This document shows positions 551 through 11,221 of a DNA stretch of 64,000 nt, one piece after another. This DNA comes from an uncultured Rickettsiales bacterium (lineage in GTDB: Bacteria > Pseudomonadota > Alphaproteobacteria > Rickettsiales > CAZNNM01). Within the stretch, counting starts at the first letter, position 1. Each line of letters opens with the position of its first letter. The DNA is taken from NCBI GenBank assembly GCA_964574415.1, contig CAZNNM010000002.1, forward strand, positions 239,110-303,109, given 5' to 3'. The position numbers and the translations under genes are program-made. The notes below the pieces were generated by a model, which did no database searches, was not told the origin of the DNA, and saw nothing but the letters and a program-made list of their open reading frames with translations.

Positions 551-628
551 GATTTTTCCCTCAGAATATATAATTCGTCAGAAGAGAATACTGTATGGGA
601 TGCAAATAATCTATGGGAAAAAGGCTGC

Positions 629-892
629 CTACCCCTCATAAATATCACGGCGATGGCCGATAGAGGCAATCGAGATCACCCTCGCATCCACATCTATATG
701 GTATAATATGCGATAATCTCCCACTCGCAAACTACGCAAATGGTGTAAACTATGCCGAAGCGGCTTACCAAAACGCACCGGATCAATGGTCAATTTGGTT
801 TCTATTGCTTTACGGATACGCTGTTTCACAGCATGATCAAGCCGTGGGATATCATCAGCAACAACGCTTTCTGCATACCGTATCTGCCACAT
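629..892 (-). CDS. Type II toxin, RelE/ParE family
   Basis: 87 aa. The profile (RIRKAIETKL...GKPLRHSLHHLRSLRVGDYRILYHID...VISIASIGHRRDIY) is typical of RelE/StbE-like toxins. It lies 3 nt downstream of a small RHH gene. Confidence 0.85.
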   Translation of the reverse strand: MWQIRYAESVVADDIPRLDHAVKQRIRKAIETKLTIDPVRFGKPLRHSLHHLRSLRVGDYRILYHIDVDARVISIASIGHRRDIYEG

Positions 893-895
893 AGA

Positions 896-1117
896 TTATT
901 TCCACGCATCCTCATGGTTTACCCACCTCTTAGCAGAAGCAAAGCGCTCATCAGCATGTTTAGAGAGCAGAATGTCTTCATGAAGCTCCAATGCTTCACG
1001 AATCAGCTCAGCAGCGGTTGCAGAGATCGAACGATGTTGTTGCTCCGCAAGATGCGCCAATAACCCGCTGGTTTCTTGATCAAGCATTACTTGAATTCTA
1101 GGATTTTCTGTTGCCAT
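896..1117 (-). CDS. Ribbon-helix-helix type antitoxin (partner of the RelE/ParE toxin)
   Basis: Start moved to ATG at 1117 (MATENPRIQVMLDQE...), with GGGAGA upstream. 73 aa, with a beta-strand plus two-helix N-terminal pattern. It sits immediately upstream of the toxin gene. Confidence 0.7.
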   Translation of the reverse strand: MATENPRIQVMLDQETSGLLAHLAEQQHRSISATAAELIREALELHEDILLSKHADERFASAKRWVNHEDAWK

Positions 1118-1270
1118 GATGGTATTCTCCCTATCTTTTGAAAGTGTATCACTTTTTACACACTTTTGCAAGAGAGAAGTATTTGCACCAACCCGCCTGC
1201 GCTTAGCTGCGCTCTCCATCTCATCAAGCCTAAAAAAGGCTTGCCGAGACATAGCTCGCAGAGCGTAGGC

Positions 1271-1347
1271 TGGTGGGGCGAGAGGGATTTGAACCCCCGA
1301 CCAAGGCGTTATGAGCGCCCTGCTACTAACCGCTGAGCTATCGCCCC
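1271..1347 (-). tRNA. tRNA with CAT anticodon (elongator Met or lysidine-modified Ile2; not initiator, since positions 1:72 form a G-C pair)
   Basis: The reverse complement GGGGCGATAGCTCAGCGGTTAGTAGCAGGGCGCTCATAACGCCTTGGTCGGGGGTTCAAATCCCTCTCGCCCCACCA folds as a cloverleaf. Anticodon loop is CTCATAA, T-loop is TTCAAAT, and CCA is encoded. Confidence 0.9.
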
Positions 1348-1400
1348 CTAAAGGAAGGTATTACCGTAGATATCCCCCTTTGGCAAGGGCTTTTCGTGGT

Positions 1401-1817
1401 TTACCAGCTTGCTAGCCCGTGTCCGGTTGGCAAAGTGTTTAAACTTGCTGCATTGGTTGGGTTTGCAATCGGTCTGTTGAAAATATCCCCAGAGGCATTC
1501 GGTAGCGTTGTCCGCATATCTGCCTCACGCAGCACCGAATAGGCATAATGCCGGCAATAGGCTGAGGCATCCTTCCACGCCAGATAATAATCAGGGATTT
1601 TGATCTTGGCTTCAGTGACCTTAAATTTATAGAAGGTCTGGTAATAGGCGTTGGTCATGTGCGAAAGCCCGGTTTCGCAGCCTTCTGTCCAGCCTTGCTT
1701 ATAATCGGGCGAGGCATCTTTCGGCATATCATCAAACAAGCGGTTGAGCGGCCGGAAGGTGGATGCACATCCCGTTAAGCCCATCACTAGAACTATTGCG
1801 AGTATCAGTGTTTTCAT
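1401..1817 (-). CDS. Lipoprotein, member 1 of a five-gene paralogous family (unknown function)
   Basis: 138 aa. Signal peptide with lipobox LTGC. The core DYKQGWTEGCETG...YYQTFYKFK...YYLAWKDASAYCRHY is shared with the four upstream genes. Confidence 0.75.
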   Translation of the reverse strand: MKTLILAIVLVMGLTGCASTFRPLNRLFDDMPKDASPDYKQGWTEGCETGLSHMTNAYYQTFYKFKVTEAKIKIPDYYLAWKDASAYCRHYAYSVLREADMRTTLPNASGDIFNRPIANPTNAASLNTLPTGHGLASW

Positions 1818-1820
1818 AGC

Positions 1821-2138
1821 CTACCAACTTTCCACCGCATCAAACTTCCACAACGTAAAGCGGAAGGTATATTGACGGCAATACGTATACGCATCTTTCC
1901 AGGCCTGATAATACATCTTATTCTGGATTTTATGCGTGTTTTGCGTGAATTTATAGAAGGTTTTATAATAGTTTGGCGCCATTGTACCCATACCGGTTTT
2001 GCAACCATCTCTCCAACCTTCCTGGAAATCTGGCGGCCCATCTGGCACATCGCCCATACCAAATGCCTTCGGCCCACCCAGTTTGGAGCTACAGGCGCTT
2101 AGCATCAGAATACAGGCTATAATGACTAGATACCGCAT
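1821..2138 (-). CDS. Lipoprotein, member 2 of the paralogous family
   Basis: Start set at ATG 2138 (MRYLVIIACILMLSAC), with GGAGA upstream. Core is GPPDFQEGWRDGCKTG...YYKTFYKF...YYQAWKDAYTYCRQY. Confidence 0.75.
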   Translation of the reverse strand: MRYLVIIACILMLSACSSKLGGPKAFGMGDVPDGPPDFQEGWRDGCKTGMGTMAPNYYKTFYKFTQNTHKIQNKMYYQAWKDAYTYCRQYTFRFTLWKFDAVESW

Positions 2139-2151
2139 ACTCCCATCTCCT

Positions 2152-2481
2152 CTAGAAGAACTCACGTTTGAGATATTGGAACATATAACGCTGGCAATAA
2201 TCAAACGCCGTTTTCCACCCAGTATAATAGGTTGGGTCTTGGGCTAAGGCACTGTCCTGCTTAAATTTATAGAACATTTTCTGATATTGGTTAGCCGTTG
2301 CCGAAATTCCCGTCTCACAGCCATCTTTCCAGCCTTGCTTAAAATTCGGCGGGCCAGGAGGGCCTTCAAACAGCATTTTCTGGTTTCCACCAAACGGCGA
2401 ACCTACGCGTGGTTTCCAGTCACACCCTGTAAGCAAGGTGAGAACGAATACAGCAGAGAGGATGATCGATAATAGTTTCAT
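2152..2481 (-). CDS. Lipoprotein, member 3 of the paralogous family
   Basis: 109 aa. Lipobox LTGC. Core is GPPNFKQGWKDGCETG...MFYKFKQD...YYTGWKTAFDYCQRY. Confidence 0.75.
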   Translation of the reverse strand: MKLLSIILSAVFVLTLLTGCDWKPRVGSPFGGNQKMLFEGPPGPPNFKQGWKDGCETGISATANQYQKMFYKFKQDSALAQDPTYYTGWKTAFDYCQRYMFQYLKREFF

Positions 2482-2945
2482 AACACACTATCACTTTTGA
2501 AGGGATCAACCCACATATCGGTTACACCATTAGCCCACGGGTTGCGGTATTCTGGCATGGTTTGATCGCCCCATTTACCAAAGGTATCAAACACACCGCC
2601 ACGGCCATCACCATCATAATCCATCAAACCATGCTCACCAATACTGAGCGCATAGACGGAGCAATAGCTATAGGCATCTTTCCATACTTGATAATACACA
2701 GGATTCTGCGCCAATATCGGGTCTTGCTTATACGAACCCCAGACTTTGTTAAACTGGGTAGCATAGGCTTTCCATCCACTCTGACAGCCATCTTTCCAGC
2801 CTTGTTCATATTCTGGCGGGCCTTTTGGCGGCACCATGTTTAAGTTCGCAGGCTTTGCCCAGTTAAATTGGGCATGACCACTGCTACACGCCGTAAGCAT
2901 CCCTATTAACATCATCATGGCAAGCGATCTGACGATCATTTTCAT
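2478..2945 (-). CDS. Lipoprotein, member 4 of the paralogous family (C-terminally extended)
   Basis: 155 aa. Lipobox LTAC. Core is GPPEYEQGWKDGCQSG...YYQVWKDAYSYCSVY. It overlaps the next gene by 4 bp. Confidence 0.75.
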   Translation of the reverse strand: MKMIVRSLAMMMLIGMLTACSSGHAQFNWAKPANLNMVPPKGPPEYEQGWKDGCQSGWKAYATQFNKVWGSYKQDPILAQNPVYYQVWKDAYSYCSVYALSIGEHGLMDYDGDGRGGVFDTFGKWGDQTMPEYRNPWANGVTDMWVDPFKSDSVL

Positions 2946-2951
2946 TACCTT

Positions 2952-3320
2952 TTAGTGCAAGTCCCAGTCTAAGTAGTATGCACAATATGAGCTTCCATCC
3001 GCAAAACCGCGTAGATACATCGGATCTTTGGATAATGTATATCCATCAATTTGCGGCTTCATCGTACGCAAAACCCCTGCACCCACAATCGACAGATGCG
3101 CCTCACAACCTGCACGCATCCCTTGGCTATAAGGATCATCACCTTGCGGTAGTTTTAAGAATGGCCGGCTTGGGGAGTATACACTGCCTTGCTTCGTATC
3201 CACAGGCTGTTTTAACCATGCCCAGCTACTGCTGTAACATCCTGACAATACAGCACAACACCCCACCATCAGCAGAATGCTTTTACCATGTGACCAGCAA
3301 GTGAATGTTTCTTTACGCAT
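2952..3320 (-). CDS. Lipoprotein, divergent member 5 of the paralogous family
   Basis: 122 aa. Lipobox LSGC. Retains a degenerate core (DPYSQGMRAGCEAH...MYLRGFADGSSYCAYY) with both Cys at equivalent positions. Confidence 0.6.
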   Translation of the reverse strand: MRKETFTCWSHGKSILLMVGCCAVLSGCYSSSWAWLKQPVDTKQGSVYSPSRPFLKLPQGDDPYSQGMRAGCEAHLSIVGAGVLRTMKPQIDGYTLSKDPMYLRGFADGSSYCAYYLDWDLH

Positions 3321-3338
3321 ATTCTTAAGTATATCATA

Positions 3339-3364
3339 TTTTTATAAAAAAATTTTTATAAAAA
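3339..3364. promoter_or_regulatory. Two copies of the perfect 12-bp palindrome TTTTTATAAAAA, 14 bp apart, upstream of the lipoprotein array
   Basis: tttttataaaaa occurs at 3339..3350 and again at 3353..3364, about 20-45 bp upstream of the first lipoprotein start codon (3320, minus strand). Confidence 0.3.
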
Positions 3365-3398
3365 TGCCCCCTCAGCGTAAAAGTTATAAGCTATTGTT

Positions 3399-3839
3399 TT
3401 ATCGTTTTTTCTGTTGTTGATCAAGCGCTTCGCGTTCGCGTTGCACTTGAGCTACGAAGGATTTTTGCGCGGTTTTTTGCGGCTCCACCTCTTCCTTGGC
3501 TACCTTCACCCCTGCTTTGAAAAACTGTTGGATACTGTGATAAATCGTTGCAATCACACTCGCACGGGCTTCTTCATCCAGAATCGCTTGCTCTCCGCCT
3601 AGCACCTGGCGTAAGCCTTTGTTTTTGCGTATCCTAAACATGCCCGCAAAGAAGCGCCCCAACACGCTTTCCCGCTGTTTTTCCTCAAGAACTTTCTCAT
3701 CACCAATTTCTTGGCGCAACCGCTTCAGCGTAGGGTCTTGGCCACGACGATCTGGCCCGGCATAGCGCTTCTCCTGCTGCTCTTCCTTGGCTTTATCCCG
3801 TTCTTCGGGCGGTTGAGTTTGATCGTCTTTTTCGTTCAT
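3399..3839 (-). CDS. Hypothetical highly charged protein
   Basis: 146-aa ORF rich in E/K/R/Q with one amphipathic central segment. No family recognised. It has no TM segment or MCE-like region, so it is not MlaD. Confidence 0.5.
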   Translation of the reverse strand: MNEKDDQTQPPEERDKAKEEQQEKRYAGPDRRGQDPTLKRLRQEIGDEKVLEEKQRESVLGRFFAGMFRIRKNKGLRQVLGGEQAILDEEARASVIATIYHSIQQFFKAGVKVAKEEVEPQKTAQKSFVAQVQREREALDQQQKKR

Positions 3840-3951
3840 AATGAACAGTAATATAACAGAAAGATGTAACAGTTTTATGAAGGGACTAGGGACTAGGAAT
3901 CTATCAACATAATGTCATAGCAAAGACTATGACACCTTACCCCAGCCTCCA

Positions 3952-4719
3952 TTAATGATCCTGAATCTGCATCTTAATCGGCCCTTCAGCCTTGCCATGA
4001 ATAAACTGCTGCACATACGGATTATCTGTCTCATCCAGATTTTCCACCGTATCGCACCAAATGAACTCACCTTGATAAAGCATCGCCACACGGTTCGCGA
4101 TTTTGCGGGCGCTGTGCATATCATGGGTGATGGTAAGTGTGGTTGCACCCAGTTCTTCGGAGCATTTTATGATCAGGTCGTTAATAATATCGGCCATAAT
4201 CGGATCCAGCCCTGTGGTTGGCTCATCAAAGAAGATAATCTCCGGCGAACGTGCAATCGCACGGGCAAGGGATACACGTTTTTGCATACCGCCCGATAAT
4301 TCGGATGGATACAAATCCGCCACTTCTTTGCCCAAGCCCACAGATGCTAATTTTTCGAGCGCCAGCTCACGGCCTTGTTTGCGGGTGAGTGCTTTGGTTT
4401 GCAGTAAGCTAAAGGAAATATTTTCCCATACCGGCAAACTATCAAACAACGCACCGCCTTGGAATAACATACCAAATTTTTCCATAATCCGGTCGCGCTG
4501 TGTACCACGAGCTTGTGCGGTTTCTTCGCCATCGATCAGAATGGAACCGCTAGTCGGATGCATCAATCCTAAAATGCTTTTGAGCAATACAGACTTGCCA
4601 CTACCCGAACCACCAATCACCACCAGCGACTCGCCCTTTTCAATGGTCAGATTAATGCCTTTCAGCACCTGTTTGGAACCGAAGGATTTGCATACATTAT
4701 CAAGTATAATTTTAGGCAT
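3952..4719 (-). CDS. mlaF: ABC transporter ATP-binding protein, MlaF-like (phospholipid/lipid asymmetry ABC system)
   Basis: Start set at ATG 4719 (MPKIILDNVCKSFG). Walker A GGSGSGKS, signature LSGGMQKRVSLARA and Walker B IIFFDEPTTGLD are present. It lies directly downstream of mlaE. Confidence 0.85.
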   Translation of the reverse strand: MPKIILDNVCKSFGSKQVLKGINLTIEKGESLVVIGGSGSGKSVLLKSILGLMHPTSGSILIDGEETAQARGTQRDRIMEKFGMLFQGGALFDSLPVWENISFSLLQTKALTRKQGRELALEKLASVGLGKEVADLYPSELSGGMQKRVSLARAIARSPEIIFFDEPTTGLDPIMADIINDLIIKCSEELGATTLTITHDMHSARKIANRVAMLYQGEFIWCDTVENLDETDNPYVQQFIHGKAEGPIKMQIQDH

Positions 4720-4724
4720 AATAA

Positions 4725-5522
4725 TTACCGTGCAAAGAAGAGTTCGGTGATGAGATAATTCGATAACAGAATGAGGATAGAAGAGGTTACCACCGCATTG
4801 GTCGTTGCAGCCCCCACTCCTTGCGCACCACCACGGGAATGATAGCCTTGATAGCATCCCATCAAGGTAATAATAAACCCAAACACCGCCGCTTTCACTA
4901 AACCAGAAAACACATCACGGAATTCCAGATACTGGAATGTGCTATGTAAATACGACCCAGGCACGAATCCAAGCTTATGGATACTCACCATATAGCCACC
5001 GAAAATACCGATAATATCAGCCACCAACACTAAACATGGCAGAGTGATAATTCCCGCAATCAACCGCGGAGCAACCAGATATTGGTAGGGATTGGTTGAA
5101 AGCGTGGAGAGCGCATCGATTTGCTCTGTCACCCGCATCGTCCCAATTTCCGCCGCAATCGCCGCACCCACACGACCTGCCACCATTAAGCCGGCTAATA
5201 CCGGCCCTAACTCACGGGTAATCGATAATACCACCACCGTTGCAATCGAGCTTTCCGCGTTAAAACGGGAAAATCCGCTATAGGATTGCAGTGCCAATAC
5301 CGCACCGGTGAAAATCGCTGTTAAGCCAATCACAGGCAGGGAGTAATATCCGACTTCCAACACCTGCCGTAAAATCTGGCGTGAATAATACGGTGGGCGG
5401 ATAATGGCATAGAGCGAATTCCCTGTAAAAATCGCTAATTTCCCGGTCATTTGTAAAAACGCCAATACCACTTGGCCAATAGTCGCTAGAAAATTCATCG
5501 ACGCTTTCTTTCCTCTATTCAC
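4725..5522 (-). CDS. mlaE: ABC transporter permease, MlaE/YrbE family
   Basis: 265 aa, multi-pass. Contains the family-typical stretch TRELGPVLAGLMVAGRVGAAIAAEIGTMRVTEQIDAL. Confidence 0.85.
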   Translation of the reverse strand: MNRGKKASMNFLATIGQVVLAFLQMTGKLAIFTGNSLYAIIRPPYYSRQILRQVLEVGYYSLPVIGLTAIFTGAVLALQSYSGFSRFNAESSIATVVVLSITRELGPVLAGLMVAGRVGAAIAAEIGTMRVTEQIDALSTLSTNPYQYLVAPRLIAGIITLPCLVLVADIIGIFGGYMVSIHKLGFVPGSYLHSTFQYLEFRDVFSGLVKAAVFGFIITLMGCYQGYHSRGGAQGVGAATTNAVVTSSILILLSNYLITELFFAR

Positions 5523-5526
5523 TTTT

Positions 5527-6621
5527 CTATTCTACATATTCCCGCTTATAGCGCTTGCCCAAGGATGTCAGTACTTCATATCCTATCGTATCCGCCTGTT
5601 TTGCCACATCATCGAGTGTACGATGTTCGCCTATAAGCTCTACTTCTGCACCAATATGCAAGAGTGAATCCGGCACATCGCTTACATCAACCGTGACCAA
5701 ATCCATAGAAACACGCCCTATTACGGGTAACATGTATCCTGCGAGATAACAATGATTTTTGTTGCTAAACGCGCGGAAATATCCATCGGCGTAACCAATA
5801 CCCAACACTGCCACTTTATTGCCCGGATGTACTTCATAGGTTGCACCATAACCCACTGTTTTGGTTTTTGTGATCGAACGTATTTGAAGAATCGGCGCTG
5901 TTGCTGTCACCACCGTTTTCATCGGGTTTGGCTGCTGTGACGTAGGATTACAGCCATATAATGCCACACCAGGGCGCACCATATCAAAATGGTATTCTTC
6001 TCCCAAGAAAATACCGGAAGAATTCGCAAAACTGATCTTATGCTTCTCAGCATGGTGCTGTATATCCTGCATACGGTGCAACTGCCTGCTGTTTAAGAAA
6101 TGTTCCGGCGCATCCGCACAAGCCAGATGGCTCATCACATAACGAATATCCAAATGCTCGCACATGCTTGGGAACATTGCCAAAAAATCCACCAGCGAAA
6201 AACCCAGCCGGCACATGCCCGTATCCACATGGATCACAGCAGGCAAGCCTGCGCGGTATTTATGCCATAGCTCATATTGATAACTATCGTTCAATACAGG
6301 GATCAGACCATGTTGCACGAACAGTTCTTCTTCACCCGCCTGCACACCCAGTAATACATAGATATTCACACAATCTATAATGCCACGCAGCTCCACAGCC
6401 TCATCAAGGGTTGCCACCACAAAATCACGGCATCCTGCATTATAAAGCGCCCGCGCAACCGGAGCCACCCCCAAACCATACGCATCCGCCTTCACCACAG
6501 CGCTACATATACTGCCTGGGCGTAAACGGTTTTTGAGGAAACGGTAATTATCACAAAGAGCAGAAAGATTAACGCGAAGCAGGCTCATAAGTATAGACGT
6601 CATCATTAGAGAGTAAAACAC
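5527..6621 (-). CDS. alr: Alanine racemase
   Basis: 364-aa ORF with the PLP-lysine motif VVKADAYGLG and C-terminal GYADGY/GRVSMD motifs. The true start may be an internal Met a few codons in. Confidence 0.9.
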   Translation of the reverse strand: MFYSLMMTSILMSLLRVNLSALCDNYRFLKNRLRPGSICSAVVKADAYGLGVAPVARALYNAGCRDFVVATLDEAVELRGIIDCVNIYVLLGVQAGEEELFVQHGLIPVLNDSYQYELWHKYRAGLPAVIHVDTGMCRLGFSLVDFLAMFPSMCEHLDIRYVMSHLACADAPEHFLNSRQLHRMQDIQHHAEKHKISFANSSGIFLGEEYHFDMVRPGVALYGCNPTSQQPNPMKTVVTATAPILQIRSITKTKTVGYGATYEVHPGNKVAVLGIGYADGYFRAFSNKNHCYLAGYMLPVIGRVSMDLVTVDVSDVPDSLLHIGAEVELIGEHRTLDDVAKQADTIGYEVLTSLGKRYKREYVE

Positions 6622-6659
6622 GAAGGATAGTATAGAGCATCATAGCTTTGTGCAAGGGG

Positions 6660-7110
6660 GATGAGAAATGGGGTACTGACTCATTTTGAAATTTTTATGT
6701 TTTTTTATTTCGCTTGTCATTCCGGACGTGATCCGGAATCCACCAAGACTGGTGCTTCTACGGAAATTCTTATCGATCACGCCGCCGTAACAGTGGATCC
6801 CGGATCACGTCCGGGATGACAAAAATGCAAAATGAGTCAGTGCCGAGAAATGGGCATTACTGTCATTGCGAGGAGCATTAGCGACGCGGGCAGGCCATCT
6901 CTAGAGGTTCTCGGTGCCTTAAATACCACCTGGATCGCCACGCTACGCTCGCGATGACGGCAGCATCTCTCTGTCATTCTTAGACTTGATCCAAGGATGA
7001 CAGGGGGCGCTCGTCACTGCGAGGAGCGATAGCGACGCGGCAGTCCATCTCTAGGGGTTCTCTGCGCCTTAAATACCACCTGGATCGCCACGCTACGCTC
7101 GCGATGACGG
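6660..7110. repeat. Cluster of TGTCAT-terminated palindromic repeats (MITE/REP-like)
   Basis: Family A copy at 6715..6821 (tgtcattccggacgtgatccggaatccac...gtggatcccggatcacgtccgggatgaca). Two near-identical family B copies at 6861..6960 and 7012..7110. A 30-bp hairpin at 6972..7001. Flanking inverted ctgactcatttt/aaaatgagtcag. Confidence 0.9.
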
Positions 7111-7214
7111 TTTTTGTTATTACAGCCTCAGCTAGAAACCACAAAAAACTCCCTTCCGGCTTTCCCCATCTCATCATAGGCTTATCCTTATTAACCTCAT
7201 AAAAGGATCGCACC

Positions 7215-8483
7215 ATGCCCGTCGCAACCAAAAAAATCCGCAAAGCCCTTCGTCAAAAACAACGGCCACAACGTAGCTGGAAGGAGTGGCTGCCGCAGTT
7301 TAAGAAGAAAAACACCTATCAATGGCTGGAATCAGCTAATAGCAACTCCGCCAGTATGCAATCCCTGTTCCACACGCCAGGCAAGCCGGTTTGGATGCCA
7401 CGTGAATATGGAAAATTTGCCGATGAGGCCTATACGCGTAACGTCATCGCCTACCGCGCTATCACCATGATTGCTCAAAGTGCCGCCAGTGTAGACTGGG
7501 TGCTTTACCGCGTGGATGCTGAAGGCAACCGCCATGTTGTGCAAGAACATCCACTTTTGCGCTTGCTCCAACATCCGAATCCGTGCTGCGGTGGGGCAGA
7601 GTTTTTTGAGTCGGTCTATGCTTATAAACTCATCAGTGGCAATAGCTACATCCAAGCCATTGCGCCCGATGGCCTCGTCCCGCATGAATTACACACACTC
7701 CGGCCAGACCGCATCCAAATCATTGCCGGTGGGGCATGTATGCCGGAAGGGTATCGCTATACTGTCGGCAATTATAGCCGTGACTTTTTTGTAGACCGCA
7801 TCAGCGGTTATAGCGATATCCTCCACCTCAAATGCTTCCACCCGCTGAATGACTGGTATGGGCTTTCGCCGATTGAGGCGGCTGCCTATAGTATCGATCA
7901 ACACAACCACGCCAGCATGTGGAACCAATCCCTTTTGCAAAACGGTGCACGCCCAAGTGGCGCACTCATCGTCAAAACCGGAGACAACCAAACCGGCCTG
8001 CTGTCCGATGACCAGTTCCACCGCCTCAAACAACAACTGGATGAGCATTATAGCGGCAGTATCAATGCCGGACGACCATTATTACTGGAAGGCGGACTCG
8101 AATGGAAAGAGATGAGCCTCTCGCCAAAAGATATGGATTTCATGGATATGAAATACGGTGCTGCACGTGATATCGCTTTGGCCTTTGGTGTGCCACCACA
8201 ATTGCTAGGCATTCCAGGCGATAACACCTATAGCAACCTCGCCGAAGCACGCCTGGCATTATGGGAGCAAACCATTCTGCCACTCTTAGATAATACCGCC
8301 GATGCGCTCAATAACTGGCTCTCCCGCCGGTTTGACCATGACTTGCTGATCTCCTATAACGAAAACACCATCAGCGCCCTCGCCCCACGCCGCGAAACCA
8401 TCTGGAACCGCGTGGAAAACAGTAGCTTCATGACCGACGCTGAAAAACGCCGTGCGGTGGGGTTATCGATAGTGAGTGAGTAA
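7215..8483 (+). CDS. Phage portal protein, HK97 family (GTA-type), orphan
   Basis: 422 aa. Matches the HK97/RcGTA-g3-like portal pattern (NVIAYRAITMIAQSAASV..., GNSY, LSPIEAAAYSIDQHNHASMWNQSLLQNGARPSGAL, MDFMDMKYGAARDIALAFGVPPQLLG). No terminase, protease or capsid genes are adjacent. Confidence 0.85.
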   Translation: MPVATKKIRKALRQKQRPQRSWKEWLPQFKKKNTYQWLESANSNSASMQSLFHTPGKPVWMPREYGKFADEAYTRNVIAYRAITMIAQSAASVDWVLYRVDAEGNRHVVQEHPLLRLLQHPNPCCGGAEFFESVYAYKLISGNSYIQAIAPDGLVPHELHTLRPDRIQIIAGGACMPEGYRYTVGNYSRDFFVDRISGYSDILHLKCFHPLNDWYGLSPIEAAAYSIDQHNHASMWNQSLLQNGARPSGALIVKTGDNQTGLLSDDQFHRLKQQLDEHYSGSINAGRPLLLEGGLEWKEMSLSPKDMDFMDMKYGAARDIALAFGVPPQLLGIPGDNTYSNLAEARLALWEQTILPLLDNTADALNNWLSRRFDHDLLISYNENTISALAPRRETIWNRVENSSFMTDAEKRRAVGLSIVSE

Positions 8484-8566
8484 GCCTGGGTGTTGCATGG
8501 CTCCATAACCTATTGCTATTTGTCATCTACTCATATGTATATTTTTTTGCATAAAAGTATGTGCGC

Positions 8567-8778
8567 TGTCATCCTTGGACTTGATCCAAGGATCCATCAT
8601 AGACAGAGTGCAACAATACGGCGTTGAATAATGCTATTGGTTTTAGATGGATTCTTGGATCAAGTCCAAGAATGACAGAGAAAACCATATCACTGTCATC
8701 GCGAGCATAAGCGTGGTGATCCAGGGCAGAGAGTCCCGTCCCTGGATTACCATAGCTATTACGTGGCCTCGCAATGAC
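8567..8778. repeat. Palindromic repeats: family C (8567..8677) plus family B-like (8694..8778)
   Basis: tgtcatccttggacttgatccaaggatccat...atggattcttggatcaagtccaagaatgaca, followed by ctgtcatcgcgagc...cctcgcaatgacga. The same pair recurs at 11441..11704. Confidence 0.9.
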
Positions 8779-9015
8779 GATGAGCCATGCGACAACGCCG
8801 CTACAGCCTGACACGATTATATGCAATCTATAAACAAATAAATCATCTATATTTTTATTTATACCGTCTGGGGTATTATCATATTAACTACAAATCCCCC
8901 TCTGCTGCACTCACCATACGACAGCAAAATAAATAAAAATTTACTAGCCAGCCAGCACCCAAAATTGCTACAATGCTTTTTCGTGTTTTTTTATAATCGA
9001 GTCACTTAGCGAATA

Positions 9016-9498
9016 ATGTTACGTACAAAAAACCCATTTTTGTCTCTAAGAACGTTATTCACCGCCTCTCTTGGGGCGGTATTTTTGTGCTGCCTGCCAC
9101 TCGCCATTGCCCAGGCAGAACAGCAATATCCACAGGATAATGATGCAGATTATTACTACAATAAATACACCCCCGAAGATGCCACTTCCAGCCAAAGCGA
9201 CAACGGTTATTACTTCCAACCGGAGGCCAAAACCCCGCCAGTGGATAACGATGCGTATTATACCGAATATTACTACGGCAATGATCGGAACGCGCAAGAT
9301 AATGTTAGCCCAACCCATGCAACACCTGTCCCAGCACCTGTAGCTCCGCCACAAGCACGACCAATGCCTATGCCCGTGCCAGGCCAGCATATTCCTTATC
9401 CACAACAACATGTTCAGCCACAAGCTGACCCGTATTACTATCCTGAAGGCAACTATCCTCGCGATAATGACGAGGACTATTATCCACTCTATTATTAA
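9016..9498 (+). CDS. Secreted Tyr/Asp/Pro-rich protein with DNDxDY repeats
   Basis: 160 aa. Signal peptide ending AIAQA-EQQ. Repeats are YPQDNDADYYY, PPVDNDAYYTEYYY and YPRDNDEDYYPLYY. No family recognised. Confidence 0.6.
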   Translation: MLRTKNPFLSLRTLFTASLGAVFLCCLPLAIAQAEQQYPQDNDADYYYNKYTPEDATSSQSDNGYYFQPEAKTPPVDNDAYYTEYYYGNDRNAQDNVSPTHATPVPAPVAPPQARPMPMPVPGQHIPYPQQHVQPQADPYYYPEGNYPRDNDEDYYPLYY

Positions 9499-9510
9499 TA
9501 GAGGCAGGTC

Positions 9511-9876
9511 ATGTTGCGTTATAGCCTTCTTCTTGTTACTCTATGCATGCTGCCCGGATGTTTTATGAAAATTCCGGATGGAATTGCGACTAATTCTATC
9601 CCGATTGACAAACTGCCCAATGATATAGATGCCGATTACATCGCCCCGTGGAAGCCCTACCGCCCACGTGTGCCGGTGGATAATGATAGCGACTATATCC
9701 CGCCGCATGGCTATAATAATGGCACTCCAAGTAAATATCCTGGCGATCAGGATGGCAGCTATGTCTATCCCTCTTCGGGCTATTATGAATATAACGGCCA
9801 GTATTACCCACACCGCCCTTATCCGCAGGATAATGAAGCGGATATACTTGATGTCTATCCACTTTATATGGACTAA
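9511..9876 (+). CDS. Lipoprotein with DNDxDY-type repeats (paralog of the preceding gene)
   Basis: 121 aa. Lipobox LPGC. Repeats are LPNDIDADYIAP, VPVDNDSDYIPP, YPGDQDGSYVYP and YPQDNEADILDVYPLYMD. It starts 12 nt after the preceding stop. Confidence 0.6.
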   Translation: MLRYSLLLVTLCMLPGCFMKIPDGIATNSIPIDKLPNDIDADYIAPWKPYRPRVPVDNDSDYIPPHGYNNGTPSKYPGDQDGSYVYPSSGYYEYNGQYYPHRPYPQDNEADILDVYPLYMD

Positions 9877-9925
9877 TCCCATCAGTTGGAGTAGGGTACG
9901 TTCAGATTAATGATAAGGGTTTACT

Positions 9926-10855
9926 ATGAAACGTCTTGTATCTGCTGTGCTTCTCCTCACTACGCTCACCGCCTGCGCGGAGTTACAAAAGCTTGAAGTC
10001 ACCTCTGCTGATCCGAAAAAACCGTTGCAGCCTATGAGCGGCGAAAAAATCCTGGATCAATTAGATGGCCCTAAAGTGGATTCGATCAGTGATTCTGTAG
10101 TAACATCCGCCGAAGCCGCCTTTAAAAAAGGCGAATATGCCAAAGCAGCGCAATATTACAACCAACTCATTCAACAGAAACCGAAAGAAATGCGCTTCCT
10201 GCTTGGCTATGCAGATTCTCTGCGCCTAGATGGCAAAGCCGTGAATGCACGGGAGGCCTATGAAAAAGCGCTGGAGGTTGACCCAAACTCCATCGATGCT
10301 TTTGAAGGCAAAGGCTTAAGCCTGATGGAAGAAGGCAAGTTTGATGCGGCGATTGGTATTTTCAATACCATCTTAAGCAAGGATGCATCACGCTGGCGTA
10401 CCATCAATGCAATTGGGGTAGCCTTAGCGCTCACCAATCGTGGTGATGAAGCGATGCAATATTATAATGCCGCGCTGGAATTCGAGCCAAACAGCTCCAT
10501 CGTCCTCAACAATATGGGCCTGCTGCAAGCCTTAATCGGCAAGCATGAGGAGGCGATCGCCACCCTTAACCGCGCCAGCCAGCTCCTGCGTGATAAAGAT
10601 CCACGCAAACAGCAAGTGGATCTAAATTTAGCCTTAGTCTATGGCATATCAGGCCGGATGGAACAGGCCGAAAACACCGCACGCCCGTATCTCTCACAGG
10701 CAGCGCTCTATAATAATCTGGGATTCTATGCCAAGCTTTCCAATAACCAGGATTTAGCAAAAAGCTACCTCACCAAGGCGCTTGATACTAGCCCTGTGCA
10801 TTACGAAAAAGCATGGAAAAACATGAATGGAGAGGCAGCAAACGCTGCCCATTAA
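9926..10855 (+). CDS. TPR-repeat lipoprotein
   Basis: 309 aa. Lipobox LTAC. Several 34-residue TPR-like units (AAQYYNQLIQQKP, AREAYEKALEVDPN, AMQYYNAALEFEPN). The architecture resembles TadD-like lipoproteins, but no tad genes are nearby. Confidence 0.7.
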   Translation: MKRLVSAVLLLTTLTACAELQKLEVTSADPKKPLQPMSGEKILDQLDGPKVDSISDSVVTSAEAAFKKGEYAKAAQYYNQLIQQKPKEMRFLLGYADSLRLDGKAVNAREAYEKALEVDPNSIDAFEGKGLSLMEEGKFDAAIGIFNTILSKDASRWRTINAIGVALALTNRGDEAMQYYNAALEFEPNSSIVLNNMGLLQALIGKHEEAIATLNRASQLLRDKDPRKQQVDLNLALVYGISGRMEQAENTARPYLSQAALYNNLGFYAKLSNNQDLAKSYLTKALDTSPVHYEKAWKNMNGEAANAAH

Positions 10856-10873: not shown

Positions 10874-11221
10874 TTAGCGCGACCAGCCGCCATCGCCACC
10901 GGTATGAATAGGAGCAGGCATAGCATGATTATCGCCTCCGCCCGATGAACCACCTGTGGCACTGCCACCGCCACTAGAGAATAACCCTTGCCCGAAACCT
11001 TGCCCAATATTTTTTGCAATATTGGATTGCGGCGCCAAACCACCTAAATCTACCCGCGCAAATGACATAATCTGGAGGCTAAACCCTCCTGTGATGGCAG
11101 GAAAGGCATTACCAAGCCCCACAAGCTGAGCAGTTGGGCTGGATTTTCCCATCCCTTTAGCGGCCTGAGTCTGCGACATGACCGCTCCCATATCAACACC
11201 AGCAGCAACTCCATCTTTCAT
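10874..11221 (-). CDS. Hypothetical glycine-rich protein
   Basis: 115-aa ORF with a Gly/Ser-rich C-terminal half (GQGFGQGLFSSGGGSATGGSSGGGDN). No signal peptide or family recognised, so coding status is uncertain. Confidence 0.4.
   Translation of the reverse strand: MKDGVAAGVDMGAVMSQTQAAKGMGKSSPTAQLVGLGNAFPAITGGFSLQIMSFARVDLGGLAPQSNIAKNIGQGFGQGLFSSGGGSATGGSSGGGDNHAMPAPIHTGGDGGWSR

Follow-up and report, generated by a model that had tools for sequence, protein, structure and literature searches.

The DNA analysed here, a stretch of 64,000 nucleotides (nt) referred to as the window, derives from an uncultured Rickettsiales bacterium (GenBank assembly GCA_964574415.1, contig CAZNNM010000002.1, positions 239,110 to 303,109) that is the sole representative of its GTDB family in its order. 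Three closely spaced genes on its forward strand are the subject of this study. Open reading frame (ORF) A (9016..9498) encodes a Tyr/Asp/Pro-rich protein of 160 amino acids (aa) with a signal peptidase I-type export signal; ORF B (9511..9876), which starts 12 nt past the end of ORF A, encodes a 121-aa lipoprotein; and the gene for a tetratricopeptide repeat (TPR) lipoprotein of 309 aa (9926..10855) begins 49 nt past ORF B. The ATG of ORF B is preceded at a distance of 8 nt by the ribosome-binding site GAGG, and no terminator-like site was found in the intergenic gaps across the three genes. Upstream of ORF A lies a candidate sigma-70-like promoter (TAGCCA and TACAAT separated by 18 nt, with an extended TG; 8945..8974, forward strand), which is a consensus match only, at 9 of 12 positions; the number of sigma-70-like sites in the region does not exceed the shuffled expectation.

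Signal peptides and lipoboxes were read from the sequence by eye. Residues 1-34 of protein A (nt 9016-9117) have the features of a typical Sec signal, with K5 and R12 in the n-region, a hydrophobic core and a cleavage site between AQA and EQ. At 34 aa this signal is unusually long, and it holds a conserved C25-C26 pair outside a lipobox context. Protein B possesses the lipobox LPGC (nt 9550-9561; LSGC in its orthologue) and the TPR protein the lipobox LTAC; both conform to the pattern [LVI][ASTVIP][GAS]C, and both proteins are predicted lipoproteins. The corresponding strings in relatives read LTGC, FGGC, LPGC, TSCA and LAAC. The signal peptide of A, the lipobox of B and the TPR lipoprotein gene 49 nt downstream on the same strand had already been called in an initial annotation of this DNA. 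It had also quoted seven acidic-aromatic motif strings, three in A and four in B, every one of which is present at the locus. In ORF A, motif 1 (YPQDNDADYYY, nt 9127-9159) and motif 2 (PPVDNDAYY, nt 9235-9261) are followed by a divergent Pro-rich linker (aa 90-134) and by motif 3 together with the C-terminal tail (YPRDNDEDYYPLYY, nt 9454-9495). ORF B carries motif copies 1 (LPNDIDADYIAP, 9613-9648), 2 (VPVDNDSDYIPP, 9670-9705) and 3 (YPGDQDGSYVYP, 9736-9771), and a fourth copy joined to the tail (YPQDNEADILDVYPLYMD, 9820-9873). The peptide YPQDNDADYVPP exemplifies a segment spanning one motif, and DVYPLYMD is the free C-terminal tail peptide of protein B. Since protein A ends in DYYPLYY, the two proteins share a YPLY-type C-terminus, as had been claimed.

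To place these motifs in their genomic background, we scanned every six-frame ORF of 40 aa or longer in the 2.4-Mb source genome (16,150 ORFs, 1.63 M residues). The pattern DND..Y occurs five times genome-wide, four times within ORFs A and B, and the looser pattern D[NQ][DE]..Y nine times, with five occurrences in these two ORFs. No other six-frame ORF of the genome has two or more DND..Y motifs, or combines Tyr-richness with the tail. The clustering of the motif in ORFs A and B is well beyond chance.

Sequences that look of low complexity and match no database family might be spurious products of skewed base composition, an explanation to which we attach practically no credence for ORFs A and B. 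Among 5.8 billion proteins, each has a single orthologue, the protein clusters P0002 (70% identity to A) and P0004 (74% identity to B). Both are encoded on Logan metagenome contigs in the order A, B, TPR gene and convergent Gly-rich ORF, just as in the window. Codon-level comparison with these metagenomic orthologues gave ratios of non-synonymous to synonymous substitution (dN/dS) of 0.155 for A, 0.112 for B and 0.083 for the TPR gene at saturating dS values of 1.2-1.4, and start codons, signal peptides and motifs are kept in the orthologue, which is 25% diverged at the DNA level. Within protein A, 50 of 55 residues of the N-terminal block with motifs 1 and 2 (91%) and 25 of 26 residues of the C-terminal block with motif 3 and tail (96%) are identical between the orthologues; in the Pro-rich linker the number drops to 22 of 45 (49%), with insertions and deletions. 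Homologues of the same architecture were found in more than 15 genomes. ORFs A and B are real, constrained genes, and the constraint is concentrated on the motifs. The initial annotation had held that a lack of conservation in relatives would unmask the ORFs as compositional artefacts; what we found was conservation, purifying selection and co-occurrence of the three genes, in the order A, B, TPR on a metagenome contig and as adjacency of a family member and a TPR gene in relatives.

The repeat family had not been recognised in the initial annotation, and our searches bear this out. Neither A nor B matched any Pfam or NCBIfam family at E<=1, except for a TonB Pro-rich linker (E 0.39), and none of 22 relatives scanned singly scored above the cutoff of any family in these collections; P0005, P0009, P0012 and most of the others gave no match at all at E<=1. 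The stray weak matches among A, B and their relatives, DUF3879 (E 0.024) and mediterrocin (E 8e-4, in 1 of 12 members), lie far below the cutoffs. Narrow queries with A and B against the genomes of 40 and then 400 relatives returned nothing real, and a two-sequence profile of ORF B found no real match in the 400 genomes. Relatives surfaced only through synteny upstream of orthologues of the TPR gene, and then through a broader profile. (Below, f-numbers denote GTDB families, and G, L and P stand for genomes, loci or contigs, and protein clusters.) Directly upstream of the TPR orthologue, genomes G035, G013, G024 and G038 encode small lipoproteins or signal-peptide proteins with a high content of Tyr, Asp, Pro and Gln, with YP[QR]DND[AS]DY[VI]P repeats and with the C-termini FYPMYYN, YYPIYY, YDYPIYFD or YFPMFYD. 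The smallest member, a 56-aa lipoprotein of G035, consists only of a lipobox, a spacer and the tail DFDYYPIYY; since it keeps nothing beyond anchor, spacer and tail, it suggests that the tail is the essential element.

A hidden Markov model of ORF B, run against 1.84 billion representative proteins, added three more B-type lipoproteins with four to five repeats and the ends YPLYMD or YPLYLD; the relatives of ORF B include P0005, P0006 and P0008. With a nine-sequence profile, ten more clusters were retrieved from the 5.8-billion set, and every source-named one of them is annotated as 'hypothetical protein'. The same profile yielded credible matches in 16 of 400 genomes of the order, namely in 8 of 12 genomes of f14, 3 of 18 of f9 and 2 of 5 of f31, as well as in f36 and f13, and none in 398 genomes of other alphaproteobacterial orders. 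In total, fewer than 20 relatives were found across the 5.8 and 1.84 billion proteins, none of which carries a functional name; the named records are metagenome-assembled genomes labelled 'Rickettsiales bacterium', 'Rickettsiaceae bacterium' or 'Alphaproteobacteria bacterium'. A search of the named genome collection with the B-type tail pattern brought up no relative that could be confirmed, and a literature search for a pair of a Tyr-rich lipoprotein and a TPR protein in Rickettsiales returned nothing relevant. As judged from these searches, A and B belong to a previously unnamed, rare family that appears restricted, among the genomes searched, to a Rickettsiales-like order of uncultured bacteria; we refer to it as the DND family.

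Several candidate members were discarded. A second match to A in its own genome (contig C3, E 0.005) overlaps a GIY-YIG ORF and rfbD in other frames and is spurious; the match in G002 (E 4e-4) stems from a YPQDNSEDINEVYSLVY string within a large, cytoplasmic protein devoid of a signal peptide and reflects chance; P0007, with PEGA-like repeats (E 1e-5), and a 958-aa frame in G037 were likewise rejected as spurious. In f9 and f13 we observed very small lipoproteins (61-95 aa; L049 1471-1719 and L051 1447-1734 on the forward strand, L052 1465-1650 on the reverse strand), in which one or two DNDS[YS]Y..P motifs are followed by a Cys…Cys pair that replaces the YPLY tail. These forms may be a separate subfamily that reuses the motif.

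A sequence logo built from 77 motif instances of more than 30 family members has the consensus P-Y-P-Q-D-N-D-[A/S]-x-Y-[V/I]-x-P. Counted from the first Asp, D0 is found in 100% of the instances, N1 in 79%, D2 in 97% (Asp or Glu in 100%), Y5 in 97%, P-2 in 73% and P8 in 62%; in the B-type repeats, D-N-D-x-x-Y-x-x-P forms invariant alignment columns. Members have two to five motif copies, diverging Pro/Gln-rich spacers and a C-terminal tail of the consensus Y-P-[L/I/M]-Y-[F/M/L/Y]-(D), with Y116, P117 and Y119 invariant in a nine-member alignment.

The spacing of the acidic residues had led the initial annotation to liken the motif to short calcium-binding loops of the DxDxD type. Under this explanation, D-N-D-x-D would form short cation loops for the buffering or sensing of divalent ions in the periplasm, or for calcium-dependent adhesion or matrix functions. 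The Asp plus Glu content of 12-15% and the D-N-D triplets found throughout the motifs speak for it, Tyr residues beside acidic ligands are common in metal sites, and two f14-type loci have a Na/Ca-exchanger gene at a distance of four genes, probably by coincidence. Short Asp/Asn-rich repeats are indeed what A and B have in common with DxDxDG, EF-hand-like and thrombospondin-type-3 loops. However, the conserved core consists of D-N-D with Tyr at +5 and Pro at +8, and the third ligand is not conserved: loop position 5 is Asp in only 25 of the 77 instances (32%) and otherwise often Tyr, Ala or Val, with Asn, Ser and others also represented. Loop position 6 is Tyr in 97% and never the conserved Gly of DxDxDG, there is no conserved acid at position 12 that could stand for the distal Glu/Asp of an EF-hand, and no Pfam calcium-binding family was matched even at E<=1. 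The best-kept flanking residues are Tyr and Pro rather than ligands, so that A and B differ from all these loops by their conserved aromatic/Pro flanks. Metal binding would also leave the conserved C-terminal tail and the linkage to the TPR gene unexplained. The calcium-loop idea is thus weakened by the motif statistics, and we consider it unlikely.

An AlphaFold2 model of ORF B, computed from the B-type alignment, reached a mean predicted local distance difference test score (pLDDT) of 57 and a predicted template-modelling score (pTM) of 0.14. It contains the signal helix and one short hairpin and is otherwise devoid of secondary structure, which is consistent with an intrinsically disordered protein whose function would reside in short linear motifs. 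The TPR protein, on the other hand, was modelled with a pLDDT of 86.6 as 16 paired helices, with a disordered tether of about 35 aa followed by seven to eight TPRs (aa 54-300). It scores as a generic TPR protein in Pfam (TPR_1 78.9 bits, TPR_2 76.7, TPR_16 69.4) and gave Foldseek probabilities of 1.00 to consensus TPRs (CTPR) and the TPRs of OGT. Its nearest solved folds are consensus-TPR superhelices, the TPR domains of OGT and SPINDLY and the TPR subunits of the APC/C, and it matches the PEX5 TPRs by sequence. It falls short of the models for NlpI (NF008391, 38.2 bits versus a cutoff of 250), BamD/YfiO (TIGR03302, 23.1 versus 81.4) and PilW/PilF (TIGR02521, 56.6 versus 154), and lies far below the cutoffs for LapB, PgaA and other bacterial TPR models; no pilus genes were found beside the TPR gene in the window or in the inspected loci of relatives.

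Single-copy orthologues of the TPR protein (33-47% identity) were present in 24 of 41 and, in the enlarged set, 142 of 401 genomes of the order. Across 18 orthologues N161, N195, N196, N234, N264, W157 and E127 are invariant, R100 is near-invariant and the lipobox residue C17 is nearly invariant. The conserved Asn residues are the 'N' of the WxxNxG helix-A signature, and this Asn is invariant in four consecutive repeats. In OGT, extended substrate peptides are held by an asparagine ladder that lines the concave TPR groove.

In at least five family-level lineages (f1, f14, f25, f36, f39), a DND-family gene precedes the TPR orthologue by 14-100 nt on the same strand. This arrangement is found in the window (f1), in G013, G049, G141, G154, G166, G178 and G190 (all f14), in G035 (f36), G024 (f25) and G038 (f39), and on the metagenome contigs L005, L032, L033, L034, L035 and L056-L059. 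The outer neighbours vary: murC, a SIMPL-domain gene or a portal gene is found upstream, and a Gly-rich gene or xth downstream. The f14 module follows the SIMPL-domain gene, with murJ nearby and xth next downstream. In G035, G038 and G024, a complete dcw cluster (ftsZ-ftsA-ftsQ-ddl-murB-murC; L028, G035:C5:60000-76000, 594-9506; L030, 1-3842; L031, 802-4924) ends next to the module, which is oriented divergently from murC.

In a maximum-likelihood tree of the TPR proteins, the inspected unlinked loci fall mostly into one well-supported clade (11 rows, 95/93) in which the TPR gene lies beside pyrB. The TPR genes of this clade (L010-L020) are divergent from pyrB, and their products often have a Pro/Lys/Ala-rich C-terminal extension of 70-170 aa. 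DND-linked TPR proteins are placed outside the pyrB clade on long branches, more than two substitutions per site apart, and the adjacency must therefore be old. The simplest history would start from an old DND-TPR operon and involve a single major event of relocation or loss. The linked or unlinked state changes at least three times on the tree.

Taken together, these data lead us to favour, at a probability of about 0.5, the view that A and B are disordered, motif-bearing envelope clients of the co-encoded TPR lipoprotein. The two proteins would be co-transcribed, exported via Sec and intrinsically disordered in the cell envelope. Protein A would be released into the periplasm by signal peptidase I, and protein B would be lipid-anchored, with the inner leaflet of the outer membrane as its probable site; this location is suggested by the lack of Asp at position +2 of any lipobox, a rule taken from Escherichia coli. 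Selection would preserve short linear motifs and the tail rather than a fold, and the motifs, above all the C-terminal tail, may dock onto the TPR lipoprotein encoded immediately downstream, with the invariant Asn ladder on its concave face serving as the peptide-binding site, in the manner of TPR domains known to bind extended peptides. A and B could then act in the periplasm as multivalent clients or adaptors of the TPR protein, possibly tied to cell-wall or division functions. The initial annotation had envisaged adhesion or matrix roles; the predicted lipoprotein anchoring and the operon with the TPR gene suggest a location at the periplasmic face of the envelope instead of in an extracellular matrix.

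A different view would see A and B as autonomous envelope spacers or tethers, or as scaffolds of Tyr 'stickers' that act on peptidoglycan or other partners with no binding to the TPR protein, their adjacency being an inherited gene order. Much of what speaks for this alternative also weighs against a client relationship. For several family members, no linkage to a TPR gene is seen: P0017 (176 aa) is encoded directly after virB11-virD4 and before lepA (locus L036, 2917-6531), P0009 is flanked by an unknown gene and an arginase gene, and the members of G083, G101 and G127, the forms of f31 and the small forms with Cys residues in f9 and f13 are likewise found away from it. With 142 genomes against about 16 of 400, the TPR orthologue is far commoner than the DND family. 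Linked and unlinked TPR proteins share an identical conserved core in which only L101, V165 and A259 are mildly group-specific, and we detected no signal of co-adaptation between the TPR proteins and DND linkage. This wider spread, and a core that is the same with or without DND neighbours, imply that the TPR protein has a function independent of A and B. No fusion of a DND protein to a TPR protein was found, and the long TPR orthologues (377-480 aa) end in Pro/Lys/Ala-rich tails. In favour of a client relationship, 15 of the 16 genomes with a credible family match also hold the TPR orthologue, compared to 142 of 401 overall, yet the linked lineages are not phylogenetically independent and such co-occurrence counts overstate the support. 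The position at the dcw end next to murC in three lineages, and near murJ in f14, may simply mirror an envelope 'neighbourhood'. What argues against an autonomous role is that the tight spacing (12-100 nt) and the common orientation have persisted across a TPR divergence of more than two substitutions per site, over which the outer neighbours changed, a pattern typical of functionally coupled operon partners. We regard autonomous function as rather unlikely.

Since the B-type repeats strictly follow D-N-D-x-x-Y-x-x-P, the proteins might instead be exposed on the cell surface, where their acidic-Tyr-x-x-Pro units would mimic eukaryotic kinase substrates or SH2-type YxxP sites and act on the protist host of these presumably intracellular bacteria. 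A by-eye comparison with the eukaryotic motifs YPxL, PPxY and YxxPhi revealed mismatches to the conserved positions. The predicted disorder and multivalency of the proteins, their Rickettsiales-like lineage and the member encoded right after virB11-virD4 would suit a function directed at a host. Against this stand the Sec and lipoprotein signals, which are not features of type IV secretion, the frequent lack of Pro at +3 in A-type and f14-type motifs, and a conserved operon partner that is a periplasmic-type TPR lipoprotein. We judge host mimicry to be highly unlikely.

The arrangement proposed here, in which A and B are clients of the TPR lipoprotein, has partial counterparts among characterized systems. 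In the NlpI-MepS system (with Prc) of Escherichia coli, a TPR lipoprotein serves as adaptor for a client lipoprotein (PMC11211486, PMC5686067), and NlpI, which resides in the outer membrane, binds a disordered N-terminal segment of MepS via hydrophobic and aromatic residues (PMC11211486). The window module resembles it in its TPR lipoprotein of outer-membrane type and about 300 aa, in a lipoprotein partner that would be contacted through a disordered segment with key aromatic or hydrophobic residues, and in the cell-wall genes near the DND-TPR module in several lineages. In contrast, the window TPR protein is not an NlpI orthologue as judged by its NF008391 score, A and B are devoid of an NlpC/P60 or other enzymatic domain and are predicted to be disordered throughout, NlpI and MepS do not share an operon, and no tail-specific protease is linked to the window module.

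TPR domains that dock short peptides or C-terminal tails are familiar from the pairing of Hop and CHIP with EEVD ends and of PEX5 with PTS1. Consistent with such a mode of recognition, the model of the window TPR protein superposes best on consensus and OGT superhelices, it has the invariant Asn in four repeats, and most family tails end in an acid after aromatic residues (…YPLYMD, …YPIYFD), reminiscent of …EEVD-COOH. However, OGT, Hop, CHIP and PEX5 are cytosolic, eukaryotic proteins, and the last residue of A and of some relatives is Tyr or Asn instead of Asp. Aromatic C-termini are read in bacteria as well: BamD, a TPR lipoprotein, recognizes the aromatic C-terminal beta-signal of outer-membrane proteins, and the PDZ domain of DegS, a periplasmic sensor, is activated by YxF tails. 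The family tails are similarly rich in aromatic residues (YPLYY, YPIYFD), but the window TPR protein scores below the BamD cutoff, neither A nor B is a beta-barrel precursor, and most tails end in Asp instead of Phe, Tyr or Trp. By analogy, the DND-TPR module resembles arrangements of a TPR adaptor and a disordered client and is a member of none of these systems.

Convergent to the TPR gene, the window contains a Gly-rich ORF of 115 aa that lacks a signal peptide (10874..11221, reverse strand) and whose membership in the module is uncertain. Low-complexity ORFs rich in Gly, His, Gln and Ser, likewise devoid of a signal (108-389 aa), were observed convergent to the TPR gene in five lineages; besides the window they lie at L009 2462-3631 (reverse), L022 9-788 (forward), L025 2356-3294 (reverse) and L005 2084-2410 (reverse), and they measure 389 aa in G035, 259 aa in G024 and 312 aa in G038. 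We detected no mutual sequence similarity among them (best cross-lineage E 0.04). With its position conserved and its sequence not, this ORF may represent a fourth module gene that evolves fast, or else a neighbour with no relation to the module. Farther out, the window module is flanked by alr and a lone portal gene upstream and by macAB downstream; the murC gene of the source genome is on a different contig (C7), and alr is found upstream of the module instead. The portal gene, of the HK97/gene transfer agent type (7215-8483, forward strand; PF04860, E 5e-86), is located between alr and the module, and no further head or tail genes were found near it.

A broader interpretation is that the module constitutes a periplasmic system for the recognition of short linear motifs, in which a flexible scaffold would couple the outer membrane to the cell-wall or division machinery as a functional counterpart of NlpI, LpoB and CpoB. 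Protein B, anchored in the outer membrane, and the soluble protein A, both multivalent and fully disordered, would dock via their D-N-D…Y…P motifs and Y-P-L-Y tail into the Asn-ladder groove of the TPR lipoprotein. The position at the dcw end (ftsZ-ftsA-ftsQ-ddl-murB-murC | DND-TPR) would then be ancestral and reflect a role in wall growth or division. To our knowledge, the regulators NlpI, LpoB and CpoB are not known in Rickettsiales. We think this interpretation quite improbable as it stands.

The practical value of these findings is modest, given that the organisms are uncultured, that the family is rare, with fewer than 20 clusters in billions of proteins, and that no phenotype is known. 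If the client relationship proposed here is correct, the poorly known environmental Rickettsiales would possess a previously unnamed protein family and a conserved envelope module of two or three genes. It would represent a clean bacterial case in which fully disordered periplasmic proteins function through short linear motifs rather than through folds. The TPR lipoprotein, to which no role has been assigned, is encoded by a single-copy gene in about a third of the genomes of the order, and knowledge of its peptide ligands would provide the first handle on it.

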